Of a stretch of DNA of 64,000 nt, positions 2,757-63,650 are shown one piece after another. The notes under the pieces were generated by a model. That model had not been told where the DNA came from. It saw nothing but the letters and a program-made list of their open reading frames with translations, and did not search any database. The position numbers were made by a program, and so were the translations under genes. The DNA is from Eledone cirrhosa (lineage: Eukaryota), in assembly GCA_964016885.1 (NCBI GenBank), contig OZ024740.1:289788001-289852000 (forward strand), in the 5' to 3' direction. How positions within the stretch are numbered: position 1 is the stretch's first letter; each line of letters opens with the position of its first letter.

Positions 2757-2869
2757 TGTCTTTATGTGTATGTATTATGGAATAGGATAGATAGAAATAA
2801 GAAATAACTAATAAGATCAACTGAAGGTGTGACAGCCACAAATACCAGCGTATAATGATGGTCAATGCT

Positions 2870-3790
2870 ACCCTCAGAGGCGAATTAAAATACAGATATA
2901 GAAGGACTCTAGAGAAATTATAATTGAATATTTAGGTAGTAGAAAAACCAGGTATTCCCATAAAATCCCTGATTAGTAGAACGTACCCATTTAAGGAAAA
3001 CCCCTGAACCGATAGACAATGTGTCGTCTGCAGATTAAGCCCACAGATTAACTGTAAAACTAGGAACGTATTATATAGCATAAAATGCATAGAGGGACAG
3101 TATGGGAATAGGAAGGCAACATATAAAGGTGAAACCATCCGTAGTATAGGAGAAAGGATGAAAGAACCCAGGAGAGCTCTTCAAGACGAGAAAAACTCAT
3201 CTGTGCTCCACCAAAATGTCAGAATCTATGGGAGCTCACTAGAGAACATTGAACAGACTCAATGCTCTACACACAGAACAGACTCAATGTTCAGACAAAT
3301 TACTGAAGCGACAAACAAAAACAGACTCCTACCACAACTAAATAAAAACTAGAAATGGAATAGTAACACCCTGACAACGTAGTAACTAGGAACACTATAA
3401 AGACATATAAAGACACAGAAGAACAAAACTAGTAAGCTAAACACACTCCTCCCGCTACATGCACGCAGAGACACACACAGATAGAACAAGTGAACCAACT
3501 AGTGACAAGTAGGAAAGAGAGTAAGGTAAGAAAATAAATAAATAAATGTATAAATAAATAAACAAATAAAGCACATCCACGACTGTAGCATGTGCAGCCC
3601 AAGTAAACAGTTCCTCAAAACAAGATGGTGTAAAACAGAACGAAGGAGAGACACAAAGTAGCAACAAAAATAATCTCTGAGAAGCTCAAAGAACGTGTGA
3701 CGAAAGAGCTTTGGAATCAGCAAATAAACAACCAACCCGTTGGGAAATTATCATAAAAAAATTGAAGTGAAATCCAATAGGTGCGTGTGT
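2870..3790 (+). pseudogene. Penelope-like (Neptune-type) GIY-YIG endonuclease remnant with 3' UTR
   Basis: VVEKPGIPIKSLISRTYPF..CVVC..NCKTRNVLYSIKC..YKGETIRSIGERMKE..SVLHQ, with stops. Clearly homologous to the 52046-52660 ORF. Confidence 0.8.
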
Positions 3791-6564: not shown

Positions 6565-6691
6565 AATGTATATATAGTGTATTTTGCAATACACTGTATG
6601 CTTAATTGAAAGCATTTCGAAGACCTTACGCTATTGTTTTAGAGTAGTGACAGTCTCACTTACTTTCATTTTCAGCAAACAGGGGAGATAA

Positions 6692-6736
6692 AGCTGACAG
6701 AGCTCTGTTTCACACTTTTTGGTGTTTATCAAAGCT
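6692..6736 (-). ncRNA. Type I hammerhead ribozyme, U3-A8 variant
   Basis: agct UUGAUAA acac-caaaaa-gugu GAAA cagagcucug UC agcu. Confidence 0.75.
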
Positions 6737-6915
6737 AACTACTCCGCCTGTTTGCTGAAAATCATGAATATTTGATTCTTATAGAATTCTAGTAATAATC
6801 AGGAACGGATTATACAGAGCGGTTGCCGGTCAAGCAGTATAATCAGTGCCTGATTATTACTAGAATTCTATAAGAATCAAACAGTCATGATTTTCAGCAA
6901 ACAGGCGGAGTAGTT

Positions 6916-6960
6916 AGCTTTGATAAGCACCAACAAGTGCGAAACAGAACTCTGTCAGCT
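6916..6960 (+). ncRNA. Type I hammerhead ribozyme, U3-A8 variant
   Basis: agct TTGATAA gcac-caacaa-gtgc GAAA cagaactctg TC agct. The first pair of helix II covaries with the other arm (G-C vs A-U). Confidence 0.75.
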
Positions 6961-7116
6961 TTATCACCCCTTTTGCTGAAAATAAAAGTAAGTGAGACTG
7001 TCACTACTCTAAAACAATAGCGTAAGGTCTTCGAAATGCTTTCAATTAAGCATACAGTGTATTGCAAAATACACTATATATACATTCATATATATATCGC
7101 TATTTCAGAGCACCAA

Positions 7117-9143: not shown

Positions 9144-9375
9144 GTAATAATAATAAATTTGAAGACTAAAATCCAAAGAAGGCTCGATAAGTATAAATAT
9201 ATATTAAATATATAAGAACCGTAGAGCAACTATTTATTAAAATAACAGATTAAAGTTTAAGCAAAGAATCGCTGCTTTCACCCTTAACGGGATCTTCTGA
9301 AACTCTCAGAAGATCCCGTTAAGGGTGAAAGCAGCGATTCTTTGCTTAAACTTTAATCTGTTATTTTAATAAATA
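9144..9375. mobile_element. Hairpin mini-element family B (CAGAAGA-core HHR) in (TA)n
   Basis: Perfect ~70-bp inverted repeat centred at ~9303. The same sequence occurs at 15725-15890, 23284-23360 and 25340-25415. Confidence 0.8.
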
Positions 9376-10321: not shown

Positions 10322-10769
10322 CATATATAATAAAGAATTCATATCTAGTAACATATATATACATACAGATGCATATCAATGCTAGCAAATATATAGGTTT
10401 TGGCCATGACTGCTGCTACGGTTGTAGGCAGGCCGCTGTCTTATTTGCAAACCACTTTCCACTGATTGACCTCGATGTCACGTGTTCGATTCTTTTTGAA
10501 TTTGCCACAGACGTAGAGGCAGTGATTTCTCAATGGTTTGGAAGTCAGTCCACGCTTTGCTATTTCCTATCCACTGAATTATTTTTTAATAAGTTTCCAG
10601 TGTCCTCGCTTTGCCTGGAAACTTACACGAGAATAGACTTTCGTGACGACGGAATGCTTCTCTATATTATTCTTCGGAAAATATATTTACTCCATTTCAG
10701 AAACTAATTAGTTGGAAGTGATATTTTAGTAAGTAAGTTAATTTTATAATTTTCTTATTTTACGTCTCT

Positions 10770-23370: not shown

Positions 23371-24321
23371 TATAATAGAATAATCGAGTATCGGAAAATC
23401 AGCTCACGAATTTACGATAAACAAATCCGAAATGAGTGGCAGAGGGCTCAATAATTCAGATAAATCAGAGCTATAACTATCGTTAAGATACCAACACACA
23501 AAGATTATGCCTAAATCACCCGTGCAGCCGAAAAATAACGACCAGGAAGATTCGGGTCACTCAGATAAAATATCAATAAATTAATAATTTATATGAATGT
23601 AAAAACTTACCCGGACCCACTAGAAAGGTGGTAAATCTAGCTTCTTGGGTTTCTGCTATTCCTTAATCCGCCCCCTATCAGCCCACATAAAAATATATAA
23701 GACTTCTAGGGAGAGGAGGGACCGGAACAACTTTATCAACGGGCCATGTCCGACGAATGTAGAAGTTAACTATAGCTAGACGCACATGGAGTCCAGCAAG
23801 GGAGATAACCTCTATATTCGCGAAAGATAATCGGTAATGTGGAATACACATATCGAATAAGAGTGCTCGATAGACATGTTAAAATAAACAGGAGCTATTC
23901 ATCATTCAATAGAATCGACAAAAAATGAACAATAAAATTAACTGGTCAATAGCTATGTCTAGAGCTAAATATAATAGAATAATCGAGTATCGGAAAATCA
24001 GCTCACGAATTTACGATAAACAAATCCGAAATGAGTGGCAGAGGGCTCAATAATTCAGATAAATCAGAGCTATAACTATCGTTAAGATACCAACACACAA
24101 AGATTATGCCTAAAATCACCCGTGCAGCCGAAAAATAACGACCAGGAAGATTCGGGTCACTCAGATAAAATATCAATAAATCAATAATTTATATGAATGT
24201 AAAAACTTACCCGGACCCACTAGAAAGGTGGTAAATCTAGCTTCTTGGGTTTCTGCTATTCCTTAATCCGCCCCCTATCAGCCCACATAAAAATATATAA
24301 GACTTCTAGGGAGAGGAGGGA
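23371..24321 (-). mobile_element. Partial-tandem (~350-bp repeat, ~600-bp period) HHR element, family C, in (TA)n
   Basis: 23373-23722 is repeated at 23972-24321. Homologous to 31212-31768, with tail remnants at ~24620-24830 and ~30950-31110. Confidence 0.85.
23609..23744 (-). ncRNA. Large type I hammerhead ribozyme, U3-A8 variant
   Basis: gcccg UUGAUAA a-guuguucc...ggaauagc-a GAAA ccca..cuaga..ucuag uggg UC cgggu. Confidence 0.75.
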
Positions 24322-24444
24322 CATATATATACATACATATATACAAATATATATATATATAAATATACACATATATATATATATGTATATATAGATATAC
24401 GTATACATATATACACACATATATATATATATACATATATATAT

Positions 24445-27508: not shown

Positions 27509-27888
27509 AGCTGAATAATGCAAGTTGCATATGTCACCACTACAAATACGAGCAGTTGTTCACTAACTGAACTTGGTGATCTTGACCGTTGACTATTGAT
27601 ACTGTTCTTCCGCTCAACATCGGTTTACCAGCCATCATTGACTTCTAAGAGTTCCTTTGCTGAATGACATATCCACCACGCTGCTCCCCATGGCTTTACC
27701 GTAGAACTGGCAAGGAAATAATATAAATACAAAATACTAATAATTAATCAAATATGTAGTACTGGGTTCGATATTTTAAGGTCGACTTTACAAAAGATAT
27801 ATTCAACTTTATTTTAGAATGATCAATATGGTAATGGTAATTTAACCCTTAGACAATAGTTGCATAGGACTGAGACCAACACGTAAGT

Positions 27889-30360
27889 GGCGGTGATTGT
27901 AATGGAGGTCGTCGTGGTGTTGTTCATGGAAGTAATGTTAGTTGTGTAGGTGGCTTTGCTGTTTTGGCGGTGATTGTAGTGGAGGTCGTCGTGGTGTTGT
28001 TCATGGAAGTAATGTTAGTTGTGTAGGTGGCTTTGCTGTTTTGGCGGTGATTGTAATGGAGGTCGTCGTGGTGTTGTTCATGGAAGTAATGTTAGTTGTG
28101 TAGGTGGCTTTGCTGTTTTGGCGGTGATTGTAGTGGAGGTCGTCGTGGTGTTGTTCATGGAAGTAATGTTAGTTGTGTAGGTGGCTTTGCTGTTTTGGCG
28201 GTGATTGTAATGGAGGTCGTCGTGGTGTTGTTCATGGAAGTAATGTTAGTTGTGTAGGTGGCTTTGCTGTTTTGGCGGTGATTGTAGTGGAGGTCGTCGT
28301 GGTGTTGTTCATGGAAGTAATGTTAGTTGTGTAGGTGGCTTTGCTGTTTTGGCGGTGGTAGTAATGGAGGTCGTCGTGGTGTTGTTCATGGAAGTAATGT
28401 TAGTTGTGTAGGTGGCTTTGCTGTTTTGGCGGTGATTGTAATGGAAGTCGTCGTGGTGTTGTTCATGGAAGTAATGTTAGTTGTGTGGGTGGCTTTGCTG
28501 TTTTGGCGGTGATTGTAGTGGAGGTCGTCGTGGTGTTGTTCATGGAAGTAATGTTAGTTGTGTAGGTGGCTTTGCTGTTTTGGCGGTGATTGTAGTGGAG
28601 GTCGTCGTGGTGTTGTTCATGGAAGTAATGTTAGTTGTGTAGGTGGCTTTGCTGTTTTGGCGGTGGTAGTAATGGAGGTCGTCGTGGTGTTGTTCATGGA
28701 AGTAATGTTAGTTGTGTAGGTGGCTTTGCTGTTTTGGCGGTGATTGTAATGGAGGTCGTCGTGGTGTTGTTCATGGAAGTAATGTTAGTTGTGTAGGTGG
28801 CTTTGCTGTTTTGGCGGTGATTGTAGTGGAGGTCGTCGTGGTGTTGTTCATGGAAGTAATGTTAGTTGTGTAGGTGGCTTTGCTGTTTTGGCGGTGATTG
28901 TAGTGGAGGTCGTCGTGGTGTTGTTCATGGAAGTAATGTTAGTTGTGTAGGTGGCTTTGCTGTTTTGGCGGTGGTAGTAATGGAGGTCGTCGTGGTGTTG
29001 TTCATGGAAGTAATGTTAGTTGTGTAGGTGGCTTTGCTGTTTTGGCGGTGATTGTAATGGAGGTCGTCGTGGTGTTGTTCATGGAAGTAATGTTAGTTGT
29101 GTAGGTTGCTTTGCTGTTTTGGCGGTGGTAGTAATGGAGGTCGTCGTGGTGTTGTTCATGGAAGTAATGTTAGTTGTATAGGTGGCTTTGCTGTTTTGGC
29201 GGTGATTGTAATGGAGGTCGTCGTGGTGCTGTTCATGGAAGTAATGTTAGTTGTGTAGGTGGCTTTGCTGTTTTGGCGGTGATTGTAATGGAGGTCGTCG
29301 TGGTGTTGTTCATGGAAGTAATGTTAGTTGTGTAGGTGGCTTTGCTGTTTTGGCGGTGATTGTAATGGAGGTCGTCGTGGTGTTGTTCATGGAAGTAATG
29401 TTAGTTGTGTAGGTTGCTTTGCTGTTTTGGCGGTGGTAGTAATGGAGGTCGTCGTGGTGTTGTTCATGGAAGTAATGTTAGTTGTATAGGTGGCTTTGCT
29501 GTTTTGGCGGTGATTGTAATGGAGGTCGTCGTGGTGCTGTTCATGGAAGTAATGTTAGTTGTGTAGGTGGCTTTGCTGTTTTGGCGGTGATTGTAATGGA
29601 GGTCGTCGTGGTGTTGTTCATGGAAGTAATGTTAGTTGTGTAGGTGGCTTTGCTGTTTTGGCGGTGATTGTAATGGAGGTCGTCGTGGTGTTGTTCATGG
29701 AAGTAATGTTAGTTGTGTAGGTGGCTTTGCTGTTTTGGCGGTGATTGTAATGGAGGTCGTCGTGGTGTTGTTTATGGAAGTAATGTTAGTTGTGTAGGTG
29801 GCTTTGCTGTTTTGGCGGTAATTGTAATGGAGGTCGTCGTGGTGTTGTTCATGGAAGTAATGTTAGTTGTGTAGGTGGCTTTGCTGTTTTGGCGGTGATT
29901 GTAATGAAGGTCGTCGTGGTGTTGTTCATGGAAGTAATGTTAGTTGTGTAGGTGGCTTTGGTGTTTTGGCGGTGATTGTAGTGGAGGTCGTCATGTTGTT
30001 GTTCATGGAAGTAATGTTAGTTGTGTAGGTGGCTTTGCTGTTTTGGCGGTGGTAGTAATGGAGGTCGTCGTGGTGTTGTTCATGGAAGTAATGTTAGTTG
30101 TGTAGGTGGCTTTGGTGTTTTGGCGGTGATTGTAGTGGAGGTCGTCATGTTGTTGTTCATGGAAGTAATGTTAGTTGTGTAGGTGGCTTTGCTGTTTTGG
30201 CGGTGATTGTAATGAAGGTCGTCGTGGTGTTGTTCATGGAAGTAATGTTAGTTGTGTAGGTGGCTTTGGTGTTTTGGCGGTGATTGTAGTGGAGGTCGTC
30301 ATGTTGTTGTTCATGGAAGTAATGTTAGTTGTGTAGGTGGCTTTGCTGTTTTGGCGGTGG
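27889..30360. repeat. 77-bp minisatellite array, ~32 copies
   Basis: The unit ggcggtgattgtaatggaggtcgtcgtggtgttgttcatggaagtaatgttagttgtgtaggtggctttgctgtttt starts at 27889, 27966, 28043 and so on. Confidence 0.97.
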
Positions 30361-31211: not shown

Positions 31212-31764
31212 ACATAAATTATCGAGATTCGCATTTCGGTCCACGAAATAACGAAAAACAACCTCCGAGATGTGTGGCAAGTTCTCAATGATTCAGATGA
31301 ACCAGAGCTATAACAAACGTTAAAGGCCAAACACACTGAGACGATGGTTAAACAATCATTCGCATAGCCAAAAAAAACGATCAAGTAATTCGGGTATTGA
31401 AAATTTACCCGAACCCCTGGAAGGTTGGTAAAATCCAGTATATGGGTTTCTGTGGCTCCTAAATCAAGTACCGCCCGCTTACATAAATAATGTCAGGCTT
31501 CTGGTAAGATGATTGAACAAGGAAGCCACTTTCTCAACAGGTTTTAGTTCAATGTTAATACAAGGACTGACCATTGCTGACCCCACGTGGGGATCGGCAA
31601 GGGAGGCAACCCCTATATCAGGTAAATGAATTCAGTTGTGTATATTTTTGCAAGAATGCAAAAACATCACAAATCGAATAGAGTTCTCAACAGAAGGGTT
31701 AAAATTAACATAAGCTATTCATCAGTCAATAGAATTAACTAAAAAATCAAGAAAATTAACTGGT

Positions 31765-35668: not shown

Positions 35669-35890
35669 TATTATTACTTTTTTTTTTTCCAATTCAGTGA
35701 TGTTCCAGAACAATATAAAAGAGATAATTGGCAATTTAGGTTCTGGAACAAAAAAGATCATTGGCAATAAGGGCAGGGGCTCCAGGTTATCACAGCCTGG
35801 GCTCGCTCGTCATCGTGCCATTGTAATAGAGCCAAACAAGGCATTTAGTCTTGGCTGCTGGAACGTACGGACGCTGCTTGACAGGGATTA

Positions 35891-37435
35891 TTGGGGCGTC
35901 CTGAACGAAGGACCGCTCTTGTTGCAAAGGAGCTTCGACGTTACGATCTTGACATCGTGGCTTTATCTGAGACGAGGCTAGCTGGAGATGGTCATCTTAC
36001 GGAATTTTGTGGAGAATATACATTCTTCTGGAAAGGAAGAGATGAAGGAACCAGAAGAGAGGCTGGGGTAGGATTTGCTGTTAAGACTGTGCTTGTGAAC
36101 AAATTAGAAGAATTCCCAGTAGGGATTAGGGAGCGTCTTATGTCCATGAGAGTTCCGCTGGACAAGGGAAGATATGCTACCCTGGTGAGTGTGTATGCTC
36201 CAACTATGAGTTCTGTCGATGAGGAAAAGATGTCCTTTTACCATGCCCTGAAAGGTGTTTTAAGAAATATCCCCCAGGCAGACAAAGTCATCGTGCTTGG
36301 TGACTTTAATGCTAGAGTGGGTAGAGATTTTAACACATGGAATGTAATCGGAAGGCATGGGGTGGGAAAGTGTAACAGAAATGGTATGCTCCTGCTGCAG
36401 ATGTGTGAGGAGCTGGATCTGTGTGTTACCAACACCATGTTCCAACAAAAGAACAAATTCAAGACCACATGGATGCATCCTGCATCTAAGGAATGGCATC
36501 TTTTGGACTACGTCCTAGTCAGGATGCGTGACAGACAGGATGTGCAGTGTGTTCGTGTTCTTCGTGGAGCTGAGTGTTGGACGGACCACCGCCTGGTACG
36601 CGCAAAAGTGAAACTAATCACTAAACGTAAAATCCGGGCTCCTGGTGTTGCCCTGCCCAAAAGATTGAATGCTGCTCGTCTTAAGGATAAAAATGTGAAG
36701 AGGACATTGGAAGAAGAGATGCAGGCTTCAGATCTTGGTGAGGATTGGCTGACCCTTAAAAAGTCGGTTTATGATGTAGGCAGGCGTGTTCTGGGATTGG
36801 CGCAGAGGAAACATCAAGACTGGTTTGATGAGAATGATGTACATATAGAAGACTTGTTGGCTGATAAGAGGCGTGCTCTGTCACGCTACTTGACGGCAAA
36901 ACCACAGGAGAGGAATACGTTGCATGAGGAACTCAGGGATGTAAAATCACGTGTTAGGCGGAGTCTTTCTCAGATGAAGGATCAGTGGTGGAGTGAGAAG
37001 GCTGGTGAGATACAAACTGCGTCTGATTCCAATAACACAAAGCTGTTGTACAGTATCTTGCGTGAGGTTTATGGACCGTCTTCTTCTCTGGTGACACCGC
37101 TTCGCAGCAAGGATGGCAAAGAACTTCTTCGTGACTCACAAGGAATTCTACGAAGGTGGCGAGAGCACTTTGATGATCTTTTGAATCAGCCGTCTGTCAT
37201 CAGTGAAGATTTCCTCAATCTCATTCCAGAAAGTCCTGTGAAGGTAGCTCTCGCAGAACCTCCGACGCTTGTGGAGGTTGCAGTGGCTATTTCGAAGCTG
37301 AACAGTGGAAGATCTCCAGGTCTGGATGGCATACATGCTGAGCTCCTACAATATGGTGGTGAGAGACTCCTGCAACATCTTCACTCTTTGTTTGGACTAA
37401 TGAATCCGTACCTGAGGACTGGAGAGATGCAGTAA
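35891..37435 (+). pseudogene. RTE LINE ORF, AP endonuclease and linker part
   Basis: 514-aa ORF with APE motifs; it frameshifts out just before PEDWRDA. Confidence 0.9.
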
Positions 37436-39066
37436 TGGTGGTCTTGTACAAGGGAAAGGGTAACAGGAACGATTGTGGGAACTACAGAGGTATATCATTG
37501 CTTTCTGTCGTAGGGAAAGTTTTATGTAGGGTGCTTCTGGACCGTCTGCTGACACACATTGCAGATTGTGTTCTTCCTGAAAGTCAATCTGGTTTTTGTG
37601 CTGGACGCGGCACTACTGATATGATCTTCTCAGCTAGACGGCTCCAGGAGAAGTGCATGGAACAAGGCTTGGATCTGTATCAGGTTTTTGTCGATCTGAC
37701 AAAAGCTTTCTATACTGTTAACAGAGATGCATTATGGAAGGTTCTCCAGAAACTTGGTTGCCCTGATAAGTTCCTTGCTTTAGTTAGGTCTTTCCATGAC
37801 GACATGAAGGCTTGGGCTAATGTCGGGGGTAACATGTCGGAGCCTATCTCAGTAAAAAATGGAGTGAAGCAGGGGGATATTCCAGCACCGACCCTGTTTG
37901 CCATATACTTTGCAATGGTTTTCTGTATTGCATTCAGGAATTGCGAGCATGGTGTTTACATCCGATATCGAACCTCAGGCAGCATATTTAACATCAGGCG
38001 CTTTGCTGCGAAGACAAAAGTATTTACATCAATCATAAGAGACCTCTTGTATGCAGATGATTGCGATCTTGTAGCGCACACAGAGAGTGATATGCAGCAC
38101 ATTTTAAATGCATTTTATGACTCTTGCACTGCCCTAGGTCTGGTTGTCAGTCTCAAGAAAACCGTCGTCATGTACCAACCTGACCCTGGTAAGCAGTACA
38201 CTGAACCAAACATCTATGTGTATGGCAAACGACTTGGAGTGGTTGATCAGTTTGTCTACCTGGGAAGCACTGTCAATCGATACAGCAACCTTGACAGTGA
38301 AATCTCACTTAGGATTAGGAAAGCAAGTGATGCTTTCGGAAAGCTAGAAAGGCGACTCTGGGGTCGGCGAGACATATGCAGGAGGACAAAGGTAAAGGTG
38401 TACAGGGCATGTGTGCTCTCTTGTCTTCTTTATGCCTGCGAGACCTGGGTCACATATCGACACCACCTTAAGCAATTGGAGCGTTTCCATCAGATGTGTC
38501 TCAGACGGATCCATGGCGTTCACTGGAGGGACCACATCAGTGATGTCGAGATTTTGGAAAGCTCTATGTGTGACAGTATAGAAGCTCTTGTGCTTAAGCA
38601 ACGACTCCGTTGGAGTGGTCACCTTGCCAGGATGAAGGATTCTAGAATACCAAAACAACTCTTTTATGGAGAGTTGGTTAAAGGAAAACGACCGCCACAT
38701 AAACCAAAAAAGAGGTATAAGTATTCCTTGAAAGCCTCTCTGAAAGACGCTAACATCTCTGCTGATACATGGGAGAATATTGCTGCTGATCGTAATAAAT
38801 GGAGAAAGACTGTATATGAGGGAAAAGTTGCCTTTGAGGCATCTCGAATTGCATACGAGAAAGTAAAGCGGGATGTGAGGAAGGGCATTGCTGTTGCACT
38901 TCCAGACGGCGAGGGTCCTCCTATGGTGCTGACATGCAGCGTATGTGCGAGACTCTGCCTAAGCAAAGCTGGACTCGAAAGTCATCTTCGCAGTCATAAA
39001 GTAAGACCAGTGGTTGACTACCAGGCTGCTGTTGGAGATGCTACTCATCATGCTTGCCAAACATGA
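37435..39066 (+). pseudogene. RTE LINE ORF, reverse transcriptase part
   Basis: 543-aa ORF with a complete RT core (YADD) and the finger CSVCARLCLSKAGLESHLRSH. Confidence 0.92.
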
Positions 39067-51784: not shown

Positions 51785-52830
51785 TGTATTGTATGCATAC
51801 GCCATCTTTATTTAGTCTGTTTATTTATTTATTTATTTTTTTGTCTTCTCTGCGCATGCGTTTGCGTGTGTGTATAGTGTTTGATGTGTGTTCGTGTTTG
51901 GGTGACTGTGTATTGGTTATTGTATTCTATCTTAGTTTACTAGTGTGTGTTTATATGTGTTTGTTGTTATTGTGCTTGTGTATTTATTTATTTATTTATT
52001 TATACTTCTCTTAGGTCAGTATTGTTTGTTTGGGTGTTATTCCATTCATTTTTTTCTGTTTAGCCTTGGCCTTCTAAGTTCTATTTCGCTTGCCTCTCTG
52101 ATTTGCCTATCTGCTGGGTCATTTCTATGTTTAGATATTATTCTAATTTCTATGTTGTCTATGTTACCGTCGTGTTGTTGTCTGGCATGTTCGTATAGTA
52201 CTGAGCCGTTTTTTCGTCTTTTTAGTTCCCCCCAGTGTTGGTCTATCCTTTCTCCTATGCTACGAGCTGTCTCGCCTATGTATGTTGTCATGTTTCTGCA
52301 AGTACCCTTTGTCCATCTTATGCTATAGGCTACGTTTCTAGTTTTACAGTTTATCCGGGGGTTTACTTTACATGTAATACATTTCCTATTAGTACAGTGG
52401 GTTTTCTTAAAAGGGTAGGTTTTGCTGATCAGGGATTTTATGGTGGTTCCTGGCTTTTCTACCACCTTAATCTTTAAGTGGGTCTTTCTCAGGGCCTTTC
52501 TACACTGGTTAGCTAATTTCCCTCCAGGGGTAGCGTCCACAAACATGGCACTCTGGTATCTCTGGTTGTCGTACCATGAGGTGGCTTTCCCTATCTTATG
52601 TCTAGTCCTATCTAAGCTATTCCATGATTTGCTCCTGTATAATGGACAAATTCCTTTCATGTCCAGTTGTATGAGGGTCTTAAACGGTCAAAAATACAGA
52701 TATAATATAGACACAAACACATATATATAGTCTAACAAAGTTCTTTCGTTGCACATCTGCAACATCGTCCGTGGTGCTATTATGTTCCTCCAGTTGTATT
52801 GTATATCTACGCCATCTTTATTTAATCTGT

Positions 52831-56910: not shown

Positions 56911-57264
56911 TTTTATTCAAAAAATTAAACTCTAAAGCAGTTTTGATGTCATAAATCATATTTTCAAAGTGAAAATCGTCATTTCTTTAATACTTATTCA
57001 GAGGTTGAAATATATTTACTGTTTGTCTTTTGGTTTTTAATCAAATATTTACACATTGCTCAACCGACACTGCTAAACACGATATTAGCAAAATTATTTT
57101 GTAAGTATGAAAATCTAATATATAATTCCCGTGTAGAAAAAGCAGATGATAAAATATACTTTTTCGTCTTGCTTATTATTACAAAAATTTACACATTGTA
57201 CACAACTATTTATTTCTTTTAATTGATTTGTATCAGCTTTATTCAATTACATATTTTCGGTAGA

Positions 57265-58880
57265 ATGCCTCGAAAAAGAAAGAGTAACATTGGAAAAAAA
57301 AAAAAAAATGCTTTTGCTTTGCGTTCTTTGCGCGCAAGCGAAACAGAAGAACAATGTGTGCTACGGCGTGCTCGCAATGCTGCTTCTACTTCGATCGCCA
57401 GAGCATTACAAACAACTGAACAAGCAGAACTCCAGCGTGCTCACAATGCTGCCTCTACTTTGAACATCAGAGCATTACAGAAAGCTGAACAAGCAGAACT
57501 CCGGCGTGCTCGCAATGCTGCTTCTAATTCCAATAGCCGTGTTTTAGAGACTGTTGACCAAAGGGCAACAAGGCTTGCGGCTGATTCTCAACGGAAAATG
57601 CGTACTTATGTCTTTCCGAGGGATTCTTCCTGTTACTGGTCTAAGAAAGGTTTTCAATACAACGCCCAAGAGGACTACGCATCCCATCCACATATCATCA
57701 TTGGTAGTATGTCAACTGTTTGCGTCCATTGTAATGCAATGAGGTGGCCAGCGGAATCTACCGGTATATGTTGCTCCAATGGAACGGTTAGATTGCCTTA
57801 TTTACAAGTCGGTGCCGAACCTTTGAATTCTTTGCTGCTTGGAGACAACCCTGATTCTAAACACTTTTTCAGAAATATAAGAGCCTACAATTCGGCTTTC
57901 CAAATGACAAGCTTTGGTCATACACCAATAAAAGATGGGAATTATATGCCCACATTTAAAGTGCAAGGCCAAATTTACCATCAAATAGGATCACTTATTC
58001 CACAAGATGGCAAAGAACACAGTTTTCTCCAGATCTACTTTATGGGAAACGGACCTGAAGAAATTGCACGAAGGGCTTCAGTTGCTAAAGGAACGACACC
58101 TTCTCTTCTGCAGCCCCTTCAATATATGCTTCATTCCATAAACCCGTACATCACCATTTTCAAAACTGCTTTACAACGTAGAGATGCTAACAACAATCAA
58201 TACAAGGTTGTCATTCGAAATGACCGCGCTCCACCAGGGCAGCATCAGGGTTGCTTTAATAGACCCCAAACCGATGAAGTTGCGGTGATTATAACACGTC
58301 CTAATCAGAGCGCTTCAAACCGTGATATTGTTATTGAATGGCAGGACTCGCATCTTCAAAAAATAAATGAACTTCATCCCGCATATGATGCTCTCCAGTA
58401 TCCATTGCTGTTCCCCTTTGGCGACGATGGCTACCGCATTGATTTGCAAAAGTGTAATCCTGTAAGTTTAATGCATCTTACACCTGGGAAAACCATTTCA
58501 CAAATGGAATTTTATGCATTTAGACTTATGTTTCGCAAAAACGACGTCAACATTCTGCATAGAACACGGATGCTCCTCAATCAATACTGTGTAGACATAT
58601 TTGCTAAGATTGACACTGAACGCCTCCAATGGATAAGACATCATCAAAAGGAACTGCGTTCAGAAGAATACGGCAATCTACGTGACGAAGTAAACCGAAA
58701 TGATCAGGCTAATGCTTCGGATGTTGGGCTTTCTGTCATTCTCCCATCATCATACACTGGAGGCCCCGTTACATGCATGAAAAAATGCAGGATGCTCTGA
58801 CCTATGTCCGCCATTGTGGCCGTCCTGATCTTTTTATCACCTTTACATGCAATCCAAAATGGTTTGACATCGAGTCTCAT
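57265..58880 (+). pseudogene. Helitron Rep-Hel N-terminal/Rep region, truncated
   Basis: CVHCNAMRWPAESTGICCSNG, NIRAYNSAFQMTSFG, FKVQGQIYHQIGSL, YDALQYPLLFP, ILPSSYTGGP, then a frameshift to GRPDLFITFTCNPKW. No helicase domain follows. Confidence 0.92.
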
Positions 58881-59978: not shown

Positions 59979-60044
59979 TATTTCATTATACATATTTCAA
60001 GGACACCAAGTTAAATTATGGTGTGCTTTCATCAGACAAAATAT
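59979..60044 (-). ncRNA. Minimal type I hammerhead ribozyme in the 3' pLTR (sense to the ORF)
   Basis: auuuugu CUGAUGA aagcacacca-uaauuuaacu-ugguguccuu GAAA uaugua UA augaaau. Confidence 0.85.
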
Positions 60045-61560
60045 AATATAGATCAGTTTTATAAAAAAATATATTGACATACCCTTAAAAAATGCAACCA
60101 TTACTGTTGGAAGCTCCCGGATAGTGGAATTGTTTAATTATATTATTATTAGTATTGGATATTTTTATTTTTAAAATAAGCCGTTAGGTTACAGAGAAAG
60201 AAAAAGATAAAGATAAAGAGGGAGAGAGAAAAAGAGAGAGAGAGAGAAAAGAGAGAGAAAAGAGAGAGAGAGGGAGACCAAAACAACAGAGAGAGAAAGA
60301 GAGAGGAGACAGAGAGAAGGGGAGAGAACGAAAAACTCTAAGTCATATCTTGAGTTAACTTAACAATTGAGATGAAATAAATAAATAAAATTAGAAATGT
60401 TAATAATTATGAATGGAATATACATATATAATATGAGAAATTAACCATTGTTTAAATATGATTAGATGTTTAGTTAATCATTTAAAAATTGAGATCAATA
60501 TATTAAAAATTGGGATCTATACATTAAGAAATCCATATATTACTAGAGAACTACATATCTTATAACACGTATACACACGCAAAAATACATATAAATATAT
60601 ATACACACTTATAAAATACATAACATATCTAACTACGTATATAATATATACACACAAAGCATAAAGGATTCTTTAATTTAATTTAAGATATAGGAATCTT
60701 TAAAATGTTATAATTGTTAAGATATTAAAGGAGATTTTATATTATACACACTTTATGTTATTAAACAAAAAAATTTTTTATATAAGTTTTATAAGATTAC
60801 CTGTTATGTATTTATGGTTGTTATTATATGTCTATCTGTCACGAATCTTGGGATAATCACTATACATAAGTGCAATCAAATTGTATGGATATACACGCAC
60901 GCGCATAAACACAATTCTCACATATACATATATATATATGTGTGTGTACCCTCAGCCAATAGGTAGATACGCATCAACGCATACATATACATACAGACAG
61001 ACATACATTCATAAAAACGCATAGAACATATGTACATGTATGTCAATACACACATATACATATATACTCACATATAGAGAGAAGTATATATAAATACAGT
61101 ACATAGTATAATTGAGTACATAAAATACAAAAGAATTATATTACAATTTGGAAATATAATTATAAGCAATATAACTTTAAAAGCAATACAATTTTAAAAT
61201 ATTATAGAATATTTTAAGTTATAATTTCAAAATAATAGTATGTTTAATAGATTTAGTATAGAAATTTATCTTACGTATACTTAACTCAAAATTTTGAAAT
61301 GATAAACTTTCGAAAATAGGAGAAGCTATCAGAACAATAAAAAAACAATTAAAAAAAAAAAAAAAAAAAGAAATAAGAAATATTTTCTCCTTTCAAGAGC
61401 TCTTCATATATTTCTCTAGAATAGTTTATTATATTTATATATATTTATATTTATGAAGAAAAGTTATTTTCACTTGAGTGTATAATCAGTAAAAAAAGTT
61501 GAAGGAATCCAATGATTTATCGACAGGTTCAATATATCAATAAAATTAATTAATTATATA

Positions 61561-62880
61561 CTACATTTTAAATTTATATTTATATTTAAACGTTGAGTTT
61601 AATCTATGTCTGCAGCCACTGAATAAATTGTTCAGGGAATTTTTGGTCTTTAATATAAAGAATATTTCCTCTATACAAAGATCGCAATTTTCTGAAGAGG
61701 AGTTAAAAGGAGTAGCCTTTGAAATAATATTCCAAATCAACGAATATTCAACGTTCCTTAGTTTGAGGTCCCATAATAGGCTAGATAGAGAAGTTGAAGA
61801 TTTTCTGTTTGGATCTGTAAAATAATTTTTATGATTATTGAAGCGGGATTTAAACTCTGTGGAAGTAGATCCCACATAATTAAATGAATTTACATTAGTT
61901 TTTACATTACAATTATATACTAATTATATAGCTAAGCAATTGTTATTTAACGGACAGTTAGATTTATTTCTACAGTTACATTTATCAGATTGAATATTGC
62001 TTGGGTTATTATTGGTATTTTGGTTAGGTTTAAAATTTCTATTATTAATTCTATTAATATTTTGCGCTAAATTTTTGGTGGAAGAATAAGTTAATTTTAT
62101 CGTATGTCTATTAAAAATTGAGTAATATCTATGTGTTCTAGGGAAGCATTTGTCAAGAGCTTTAAAAAATAGTTTAGCAATAGGGGTTTTAATATTTAAT
62201 GAGAAAGGAGGAGCGAACCATAATATGTTCCTAGTTCTATTTCTTTTTCGGCTTTCGGAATTAATGTAAGGTTTTCTATTATAGTTGTTAAAATTGTTAC
62301 CATAGTTAAAATTGTTACGAGTATGGTTAGTTGTTATATTATTATTATTATCGGTGTATTTCATTTTATTTCTATACCCAGCTCTACCTAACGCTTCGTT
62401 TTAATAATGTGCTTTTTCATCAAATATATTCTTATTAGCTGAAATTCTCGAAATTCGTTCTTGTACAGAGTTCACTATAGTATTTTTAACGGATCTGGGG
62501 TGATTAGAGTTAAAATTGACGTAATTTAAGTTCTCATTTAGTTTGTGAAATGGATAAAGAATACATGTGTTAAGATTTAGTGTTACATCTAGAAAATTAA
62601 CTATTTTATGGTTATTCTCTATTTCTACTTTTAGATTAAGGTAATTAAAAAATTGTATAATTTGTTTTCTTTTTCTATTTAGTTCACAGTTATTATTTTC
62701 TATAAGTAAAAGCATGTCGTCACGATATAAACCTCCGGTTATCTCAGGTATTTTTCTATGTAGAGAATTAATTATAAATAGGCCCACAAGATCCGTTACC
62801 TGAGCGGAATCGGATAATCCCATAGTTATGTCGAAATTATTATTTCTATCTGCCCTAGTCCATAGTTGGTTATTAAATTC
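61561..62880 (-). pseudogene. Naiad-type PLE RT C-terminal half plus GIY-YIG endonuclease
   Basis: FDITMGLSDSAQVTDLVGL, GLYRDD, VNFLDVTLNL, SNHP, RNILWFAPPFS, CNCRNKSNCPLNNNCL, LVY..YVGSTSTEFKSRFNNH, CDLCIEE and CRH. One reading frame with two TAA stops (62401, 61924). Confidence 0.92.
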
Positions 62881-62948
62881 TAGCTGGTTATTAAATTCTA
62901 TTTAATTGTCTCTTTACTCTCTCTTTTCTCTCTCTTTTCTCTCTCTTT

Positions 62949-62985
<37 letters not shown>

Positions 62986-63167
62986 CTCTCTCCTTCTTTA
63001 TCTTTATATTTTTCTTTCTCTGTAACCCAACGGCTTATTTTAAAAATAAAAATATCCAATACTAATAATAATATAATTAAACAACTCCCCTATCCGGGAG
63101 CTTCCAACAGTAATGGTTGCATTTTGTAAGGGTATGTCAATATTTATTTATAAAACTGATCTATATT

Positions 63168-63234
63168 ATATTTTGTCTGATGAAAGCACACCATAATTTA
63201 ACTTGGTGTCCTTGAAATATGTATAATGAAATAA
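63168..63234 (+). ncRNA. Minimal type I hammerhead ribozyme in the inverted pLTR
   Basis: Same motif as 59979-60044, read on the + strand. Confidence 0.85.
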
Positions 63235-63515: not shown

Positions 63516-63612
63516 TTTCCTCCCTAAATATGTATATAAAAACTAAAAAAATCCTTTCTCCATTTTATTATTATTCGTAGTAATATGCAAGTTAACTGCA
63601 CTATACACTTCC

Positions 63613-63650
63613 GTCGTTGAAAAAGCATATAAAGCTGAAACCGGTACACA
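63613..63650 (+). ncRNA. Minimal hammerhead ribozyme, U3-A8 variant, weak helix I
   Basis: gtcg TTGAAAA agc-atataaa-gct GAAA ccgg TA cac. Helix III is the ACCGGT palindrome. Confidence 0.55.

Follow-up and report, generated by a model that had tools for sequence, protein, structure and literature searches.

Hammerhead ribozymes that carry U3-A8 instead of C3-G8 have already been published, and from a known setting; as a variant, it is not novel. The passages of Perreault 2011 (PMC3088659) on core variants describe several natural U3-A8 covariants, for which in vitro activity is cited, and also a U.U mismatch at positions 10.1/11.1. Cervera and De la Pena 2014 (PMC4209133), where a variant U3-A8 descriptor was already in use, report about 1,300 U3-A8 motifs in the Cercyon Penelope-like elements (PLEs) of Schistosoma and a low in vitro activity of minimal PLE motifs; in the supplement of that paper, the U3-A8 motifs of S. 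mansoni and the C3-G8 motifs of S. japonicum are similar. In the pairwise mutational scan described in Roberts 2023, which concerned one construct, the pair was rescued by G3-C8 only and not by U3-A8, which argues that the activity of U3-A8 depends on context. Tandem type I repeats have been reported to yield circular RNA (PMC7229834), and further background on hammerheads can be found in the review of Weinberg 2019 (PMC6765202).

Here, we analyzed a stretch of 64,000 nucleotides from Eledone cirrhosa (the window), together with copies sampled from the rest of the genome. The window contains five type I hammerhead folds belonging to three unrelated high-copy lineages, A, B and C, in which U3-A8 is the state of the whole family, and sequence comparisons make it likely that these lineages are derived from PLEs and that the pair has been kept by selection. 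Like the Cercyon hammerheads of S. mansoni (PMC4209133), they are of type I, carry U3-A8, have PLE repeats as their probable setting, and occur as thousands of copies that are dispersed and lie on opposite strands. However, the Cercyon motifs described in that paper are minimal and lack stem III, whereas A and B have a stable stem III and fold as complete monomers, B has long arms and N.A at 10.1/11.1, and the 4-nt stem III of C is palindromic. The compensatory U3-A8 pair is the same as that of Perreault 2011 (PMC3088659), but here it is carried by whole high-copy animal lineages, and the variant section of that paper includes no family with C13 or A4, two core changes to which we return below.

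Type I hammerheads were detected by a descriptor scan at 6920(+), 6732(-), 23739(-) and 31537(-). The fifth, at 63617(+), was recognized on inspection; its stem I requires a bulge, and this copy falls below the strict descriptor, unlike a family C copy elsewhere in the genome, which passes it. All five sites show three stems around boxes 3-9 and 12-15.1 with A15.1-U16.1 and H17, the weakest being 63617, and all five have a Watson-Crick U3-A8 pair, as do the majorities of their families, as well as GAAA and an NUH triplet (GUC at 6920, 6732 and 23739, GUU at 31537, and GUA at 63617). Thus, the U3-A8 heptamers that an earlier note on this DNA had cited, together with their intact GAAA and NUH, are present at every site. 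It should be noted that the arm given there as 6692 does contain a U3-A8 hammerhead, but that its core sits at 6732-6726, position 6692 being the 3' end of stem I. RNAfold predicted the three-way junction for 6920 (z -3.4) and 23739 (z -3.1), and a structure close to it for 31537 (z -1.7); 6732 was predicted to adopt another fold, and 63617 gave no junction. Four of the 56 TTGANAA heptamers in the window pass the descriptor at a score of at least 11, against none in each of 20 shuffles. At the gathering score, Rfam returned no hammerhead match in the window, whether U3-A8 or C3-G8, and the 150 listed among the 235 matches of an E-value scan of the window were all repeat-driven and miRNA-like. 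Because the canonical C3-G8 motifs of the window were also missed, the Rfam result does not discriminate between the two cores. A literal CUGANGA search would indeed overlook the variants, but a descriptor for them has existed since 2014, and the canonical motifs of the window escape Rfam too.

Table 1. Coordinates of the U3-A8 hammerheads and of their repeat units in the window
Feature	Positions	Strand	Details
Family A, left (inverted) arm	6565..6815	-	5'-truncated copy of the 319-bp unit; from alignment to the right arm
Type I hammerhead, family A	6692..6736	-	U3-A8 core 6732-6726; private A10.1-U11.1; predicted cut 6696/6695
Family A, right arm	6837..7086	+	Terminates at (TA)n tract
Type I hammerhead, family A	6916..6960	+	U3-A8 core 6920-6926; G10.1-C11.1; GAAA 6941-6944; predicted cut 6956/6957
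Type I hammerhead, lineage B, young subfamily, 600-bp unit	23610..23743	-	U3-A8 core 23739-23733; A.A at 10.1/11.1; stem II arm 79 nt; stem III long; predicted cut 23614/23613
Partial tandem copy of B unit, upstream, truncated before the 5' core	24082..24322	-	
Type I hammerhead, second B subfamily	31408..31541	-	U3-A8 core 31537-31531; GUU cleavage triplet
Small dimer-type hammerhead, family C	63612..63650	+	U3-A8 core 63617-63623; stem III is a palindrome; stem I has a bulge

The window copies are probably passive insertions under neutral drift, and that of family C is probably a decayed copy. About ten canonical C3-G8 type I hammerheads are also present in the window (11283, 14782, 15451, 20968, 21066, 23040, 33239, 40440, 60035 and 63177), and at 10643 there is a decayed type I copy with G3.

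No flank homology was found among A, B and C, which agrees with the earlier note in that they represent three unrelated lineages; the hammerheads at 23739 and 31537 both belong to B, of which they are two subfamilies. Family A consists of a 319-bp unit that occurs as monomers, short tandems and inverted pairs within (TA)n tracts. The palindrome at 6.7 kb is such an inverted pair, and its arms align with 240 identities, 10 mismatches and 1 gap over 251 columns. In the case of lineage B, the unit is ~600 bp and stems II and III are very long; the tandem spacings are 319-328 for A and about 600 for B. Family C has a weak, bulged stem I and, as is typical for dimer-cleaving PLE motifs, a palindromic stem III. 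Among the loci compared, 12 of 29 for A, 6 of 30 for C and none of 30 for B have inverted copies. Traits of PLE pseudo-LTRs are thus found in these repeats (5' truncation, partial tandems, an inverted 5' copy and microsatellite targets), the inverted copies being those of A and C.

Non-LTR retrozymes, according to the parts of PMC7229834 and Li 2026 (bioRxiv 10.64898/2026.07.22.740005) that describe them, consist of short tandem units that are non-coding and contain a single type I hammerhead; they have a self-paired circular fold and a proposed PLE origin. Family A shows these features, the circular fold of its 319-nt unit having an MFE of -78.8 against -48.3 +/- 4.9 for shuffles, and the 310-bp arrays of its relative A' fit this description as well. 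In the same sources, retrozyme units usually measure 150-450 bp, a range that the 600-bp unit of B exceeds. Another difference is that A is found mostly as monomers, dimers and inverted pairs, and it is known here from its DNA, so that its circular RNA is a prediction. A and B fit non-autonomous retrozyme-like units.

The state of positions 3 and 8 was counted in each family. Among the 100 copies of family A listed from 133 matches, 94 have U3-A8, three have U3-G8, three have other single changes, and none has C3. All 32 copies of lineage B have U3-A8, including those of the young subfamily, which are 96-100% identical to each other. In family C, 24 of 25 copies are U3-A8, one is C3-A8, and there is no C3-G8. 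These counts argue that U3-A8 was inherited from master elements and is not a product of decay. Across 24 multi-copy families, the majority state is C3-G8 in 18 and U3-A8 in six, and none is mismatched; the six U3-A8 families correspond to about four lineages. This tally sets aside group 28, a doubtful group of three copies whose other copies lack GAAA, and the single matches L150 and L251, all of them probable false positives. Two apparent mismatch families, L118 and L121, were rejected as such, both resolving to C3-G8 majorities. Hammerheads with U3-A8 from other families were seen at L032:836(+), L155:7017(+) and L184:7086(-).

Comparison with C3-G8 relatives provides further indications of selection. 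The sister family A' has C3-G8 in all 100 copies listed among 12,268 pattern matches. It shares 67% identity with A over the unit, all other core bases are kept, and both sides have changed at 8 of the 16 pairs of the outer stem. There are also C3-G8 sisters closer to A than A', and when positions 3 and 8 are masked, the tree requires a single switch, which is moderately supported (73/93, and 76% of bootstrap trees). A' itself is a young retrozyme-like repeat whose 310-bp units form back-to-back inverted tandem arrays (L141, L146; G000:C1:1239873-1244268). In B, six copies that represent five or six diverged subfamilies share the same core apart from a variable position 7, and show double changes at 9 of 25 predicted pairs. 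A profile search of B did not find a C3-G8 sister. The L013 family looks similar to B, but homology could not be demonstrated. The earlier view of these cores as selected functional variants rather than decay therefore stands at the family level in respect of selection, as judged from the majorities, the sisters of A and the subfamilies of B; the word functional, on the other hand, has to be set against the abundant C13 and A4 cores.

Positions 10.1 and 11.1 are paired in A and C and unpaired in B, where A.A or C.A is found (A.A in both window copies), and mismatches at these positions occur in many families of the Eledone cirrhosa genome. Family A has G-C in 48 of 50 copies compared. The combination A10.1-U11.1 is confined, genome-wide, to the left arm in the window, and A10.1 alone is found in eight copies and U11.1 alone in 14. 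The covariation that had been proposed for this pair in the palindrome was therefore rejected; the comparison of copies sets one private pair against 22 singles, and AT-biased decay or chance accounts for it.

A per-copy census was carried out on 140 evenly spaced 10-kb stretches (1.4 Mb) using a descriptor in which positions 3 and 8 were free. It gave 107 motifs (91 C-G, 8 U-A, 5 U-G, 2 C-A and 1 A-G), against 1, 4 and 3 matches in reversed and shuffled controls. The density of descriptor-intact hammerheads is thus ~76 per Mb, or roughly 230,000 by extrapolation to the 3.0-Gb genome. Counted per copy, single and double mutants are equally frequent (8 each among 107), the very outcome that the earlier note had named as evidence against its proposal, but at the family level none of the 24 majorities is mismatched. 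Five of the eight singles belong to C3-G8 families, one has no homolog, and two are U3-G8 copies beside U3-A8 relatives. Hence, the parity arises mostly because C3-G8 families decay, and a test based on single copies is badly posed. The last two singles, L283:9438(-) and L284:2527(+), are ~86% identical to their U3-A8 relatives; these sequences may represent U3.G8 subfamilies or wobble intermediates.

ORFs of PLEs are frequent in the sampled DNA, and in several of them the endonuclease is followed by a hammerhead on its 3' side. At two loci, a GIY-YIG ORF (Pfam PF01541, 25 bits with a cut-off of 22.6) is followed ~1.05 kb further 3' by D2, which is related to C. One copy of C lies 938 nt 3' of a decayed endonuclease that is 80% identical to the D2-linked one, with another repeat intervening, so that the link between C and an endonuclease concerns a single interrupted locus. 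Judging from the CxxC linker, the endonuclease may be Neptune-like. The 3' pseudo-LTR hammerheads of endonuclease PLEs, in the part of Craig 2021 (PMC8557442) that deals with them, likewise lie 3' of a GIY-YIG ORF and come with inverted 5'-truncated copies and microsatellite targets, the likeness in hammerhead and ORF arrangement being confined to D2 and the one C locus. No ORF linked to A or B was found in about 1.46 Mb. At 23780-24080(+) in the window, antisense to the B unit, a frameshifted GIY-YIG C-terminus is plausible by eye, but this decayed remnant was rejected as it lacks statistical support (best tblastn E of 0.1); a PLE ORF upstream of the B copy in L042 was also rejected, being a separate insertion. 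A PLE insertion occupies 60035-63177 of the window. It includes a decayed RT/endonuclease ORF at 62835-61591(-), followed 1.55 kb downstream by a hammerhead, and there is an inverted copy at 63177. The window further contains remnants of PLE endonucleases, a LINE with RVT_1 that is frameshifted, part of a Helitron, and a tandem array in which a 77-bp unit is repeated ~33 times (listed jointly: 52049-52687(-), 2831-3346(+), 35882-39063(+), 57223-58797(+) and 27734-30266).

Two abundant families depart from the consensus core. D2 has 10,244 pattern matches; among the 100 copies listed, all have U3-A8 and 97 have C13 (GCAA replacing GAAA), and a similar pattern for the A13 counterpart matches only 35 copies. 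It comprises two subfamilies, and stems I-III are intact, with compensatory changes relative to the A13 sister D. D2 was sampled at L231-L248 (e.g., L236:1500-1545) and genome-wide in G000. No C13 was seen in C3-G8 families among the families examined. The second family has C3-G8 and the core CAGAAGA, and each of the 17 copies detected in 1 Mb has A4; four of its copies lie in the window, at 9299(-), 9307(+), 15883(-) and 25351(+), the pair at 9.3 kb forming a small palindrome. As D2 combines U3-A8 with C13, and A4 occurs in a C3-G8 family of high abundance, catalysis may constrain the core less than is assumed, and as both families have amplified hugely, amplification may not require a fast ribozyme. 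Either the consensus is stricter than what the core tolerates, or the C13 and A4 families may spread without efficient cleavage. The sheared 8.13 pair is a ground-state contact and offers a possible route for covariation between these positions. If D2 cleaves, the U3-A8 swap might open the way to a second core change, in which position 13 covaries with position 8; from the sequences, we regard this as a rather doubtful conjecture. If true, the hammerhead consensus would have to be broadened, and families of ribozymes invisible to GAAA-based searches would come to light. A literature search returned no paper on an A13C hammerhead, which is weak evidence, since Lunse 2017, Przybilski and Hammann 2007, Nelson and Uhlenbeck 2008, and Martick and Scott 2006 may list C13 or A4.

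How U3-A8 came to characterize whole families can be explained in several ways. One explanation is that canonical copies, once inserted, changed by chance or by AT-biased decay; in its favor, both changes are GC-to-AT transitions, TTGANAA is common in the window, and the same process accounts for the A10.1-U11.1 pair. However, C3-G8 is absent from the listed copies of A and from those of C, the young B subfamily is uniformly U3-A8, and the reversed and shuffled controls gave 1-4 matches versus 107; at positions 3 and 8 the family counts, as comparisons of copies, refute this explanation, to which we attach almost no probability. If the drift proceeded in steps, by way of a U3.G8 wobble that is tolerated and persists in subfamilies of its own, positions 3 and 8 would not change jointly in every case, contrary to the earlier note. 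The two U3-G8 copies close to U3-A8 relatives, the observation that A8G is the commonest single change in family A (3 of 100 listed), and a Saccoglossus representative with U3 and G8 in the supplement of PMC4209133 are consistent with such a route. No multi-copy U3.G8 family exists among the 24, however, and the two suspected families with single changes proved to be C3-G8. We regard the wobble route as possible, though on the unlikely side, and it would complement selection on the pair more than replace it.

Alternatively, constraint may have been relaxed, the hammerhead being a weak or dead relic in many families that PLE enzymes spread without cleavage, with U3-A8 simply tolerated. The prevalence of C13 in D2, the very abundant A4 family and the many families mismatched at 10.1/11.1 point in this direction, as do the descriptions of minimal PLE hammerheads as poor cutters in vitro (PMC4209133) and of Naiad PLEs that spread without hammerheads (PMC8557442). 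Against this, positions 3 and 8 are complementary in all 24 family majorities, including those with C13 and A4, stems covary between sisters, and A and B fold as complete monomers, which makes relaxed constraint improbable in our view. We consider it likely that the swapped pair was kept by selection on master elements. Tandem copies of A, B and C would be transcribed, and the transcripts would be cleaved after position 17; A and B would act as monomers, and C would dimerize by means of its palindromic stem III. Units of 319 nt and 600 nt would then circularize and be reinserted by PLE enzymes, and selection on master elements that cut their own tandem transcripts would keep the U3-A8 pair.

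Regardless of the route taken, this genome provides natural matched sets for the switching of a tertiary core pair, with the C3-G8 sisters A' and A'' on one side and the U3-A8 family A on the other. The C13 derivative on a U3-A8 background, D2, offers a further natural comparison, and the C13 and A4 families bear on whether PLE hammerheads must cut at all.
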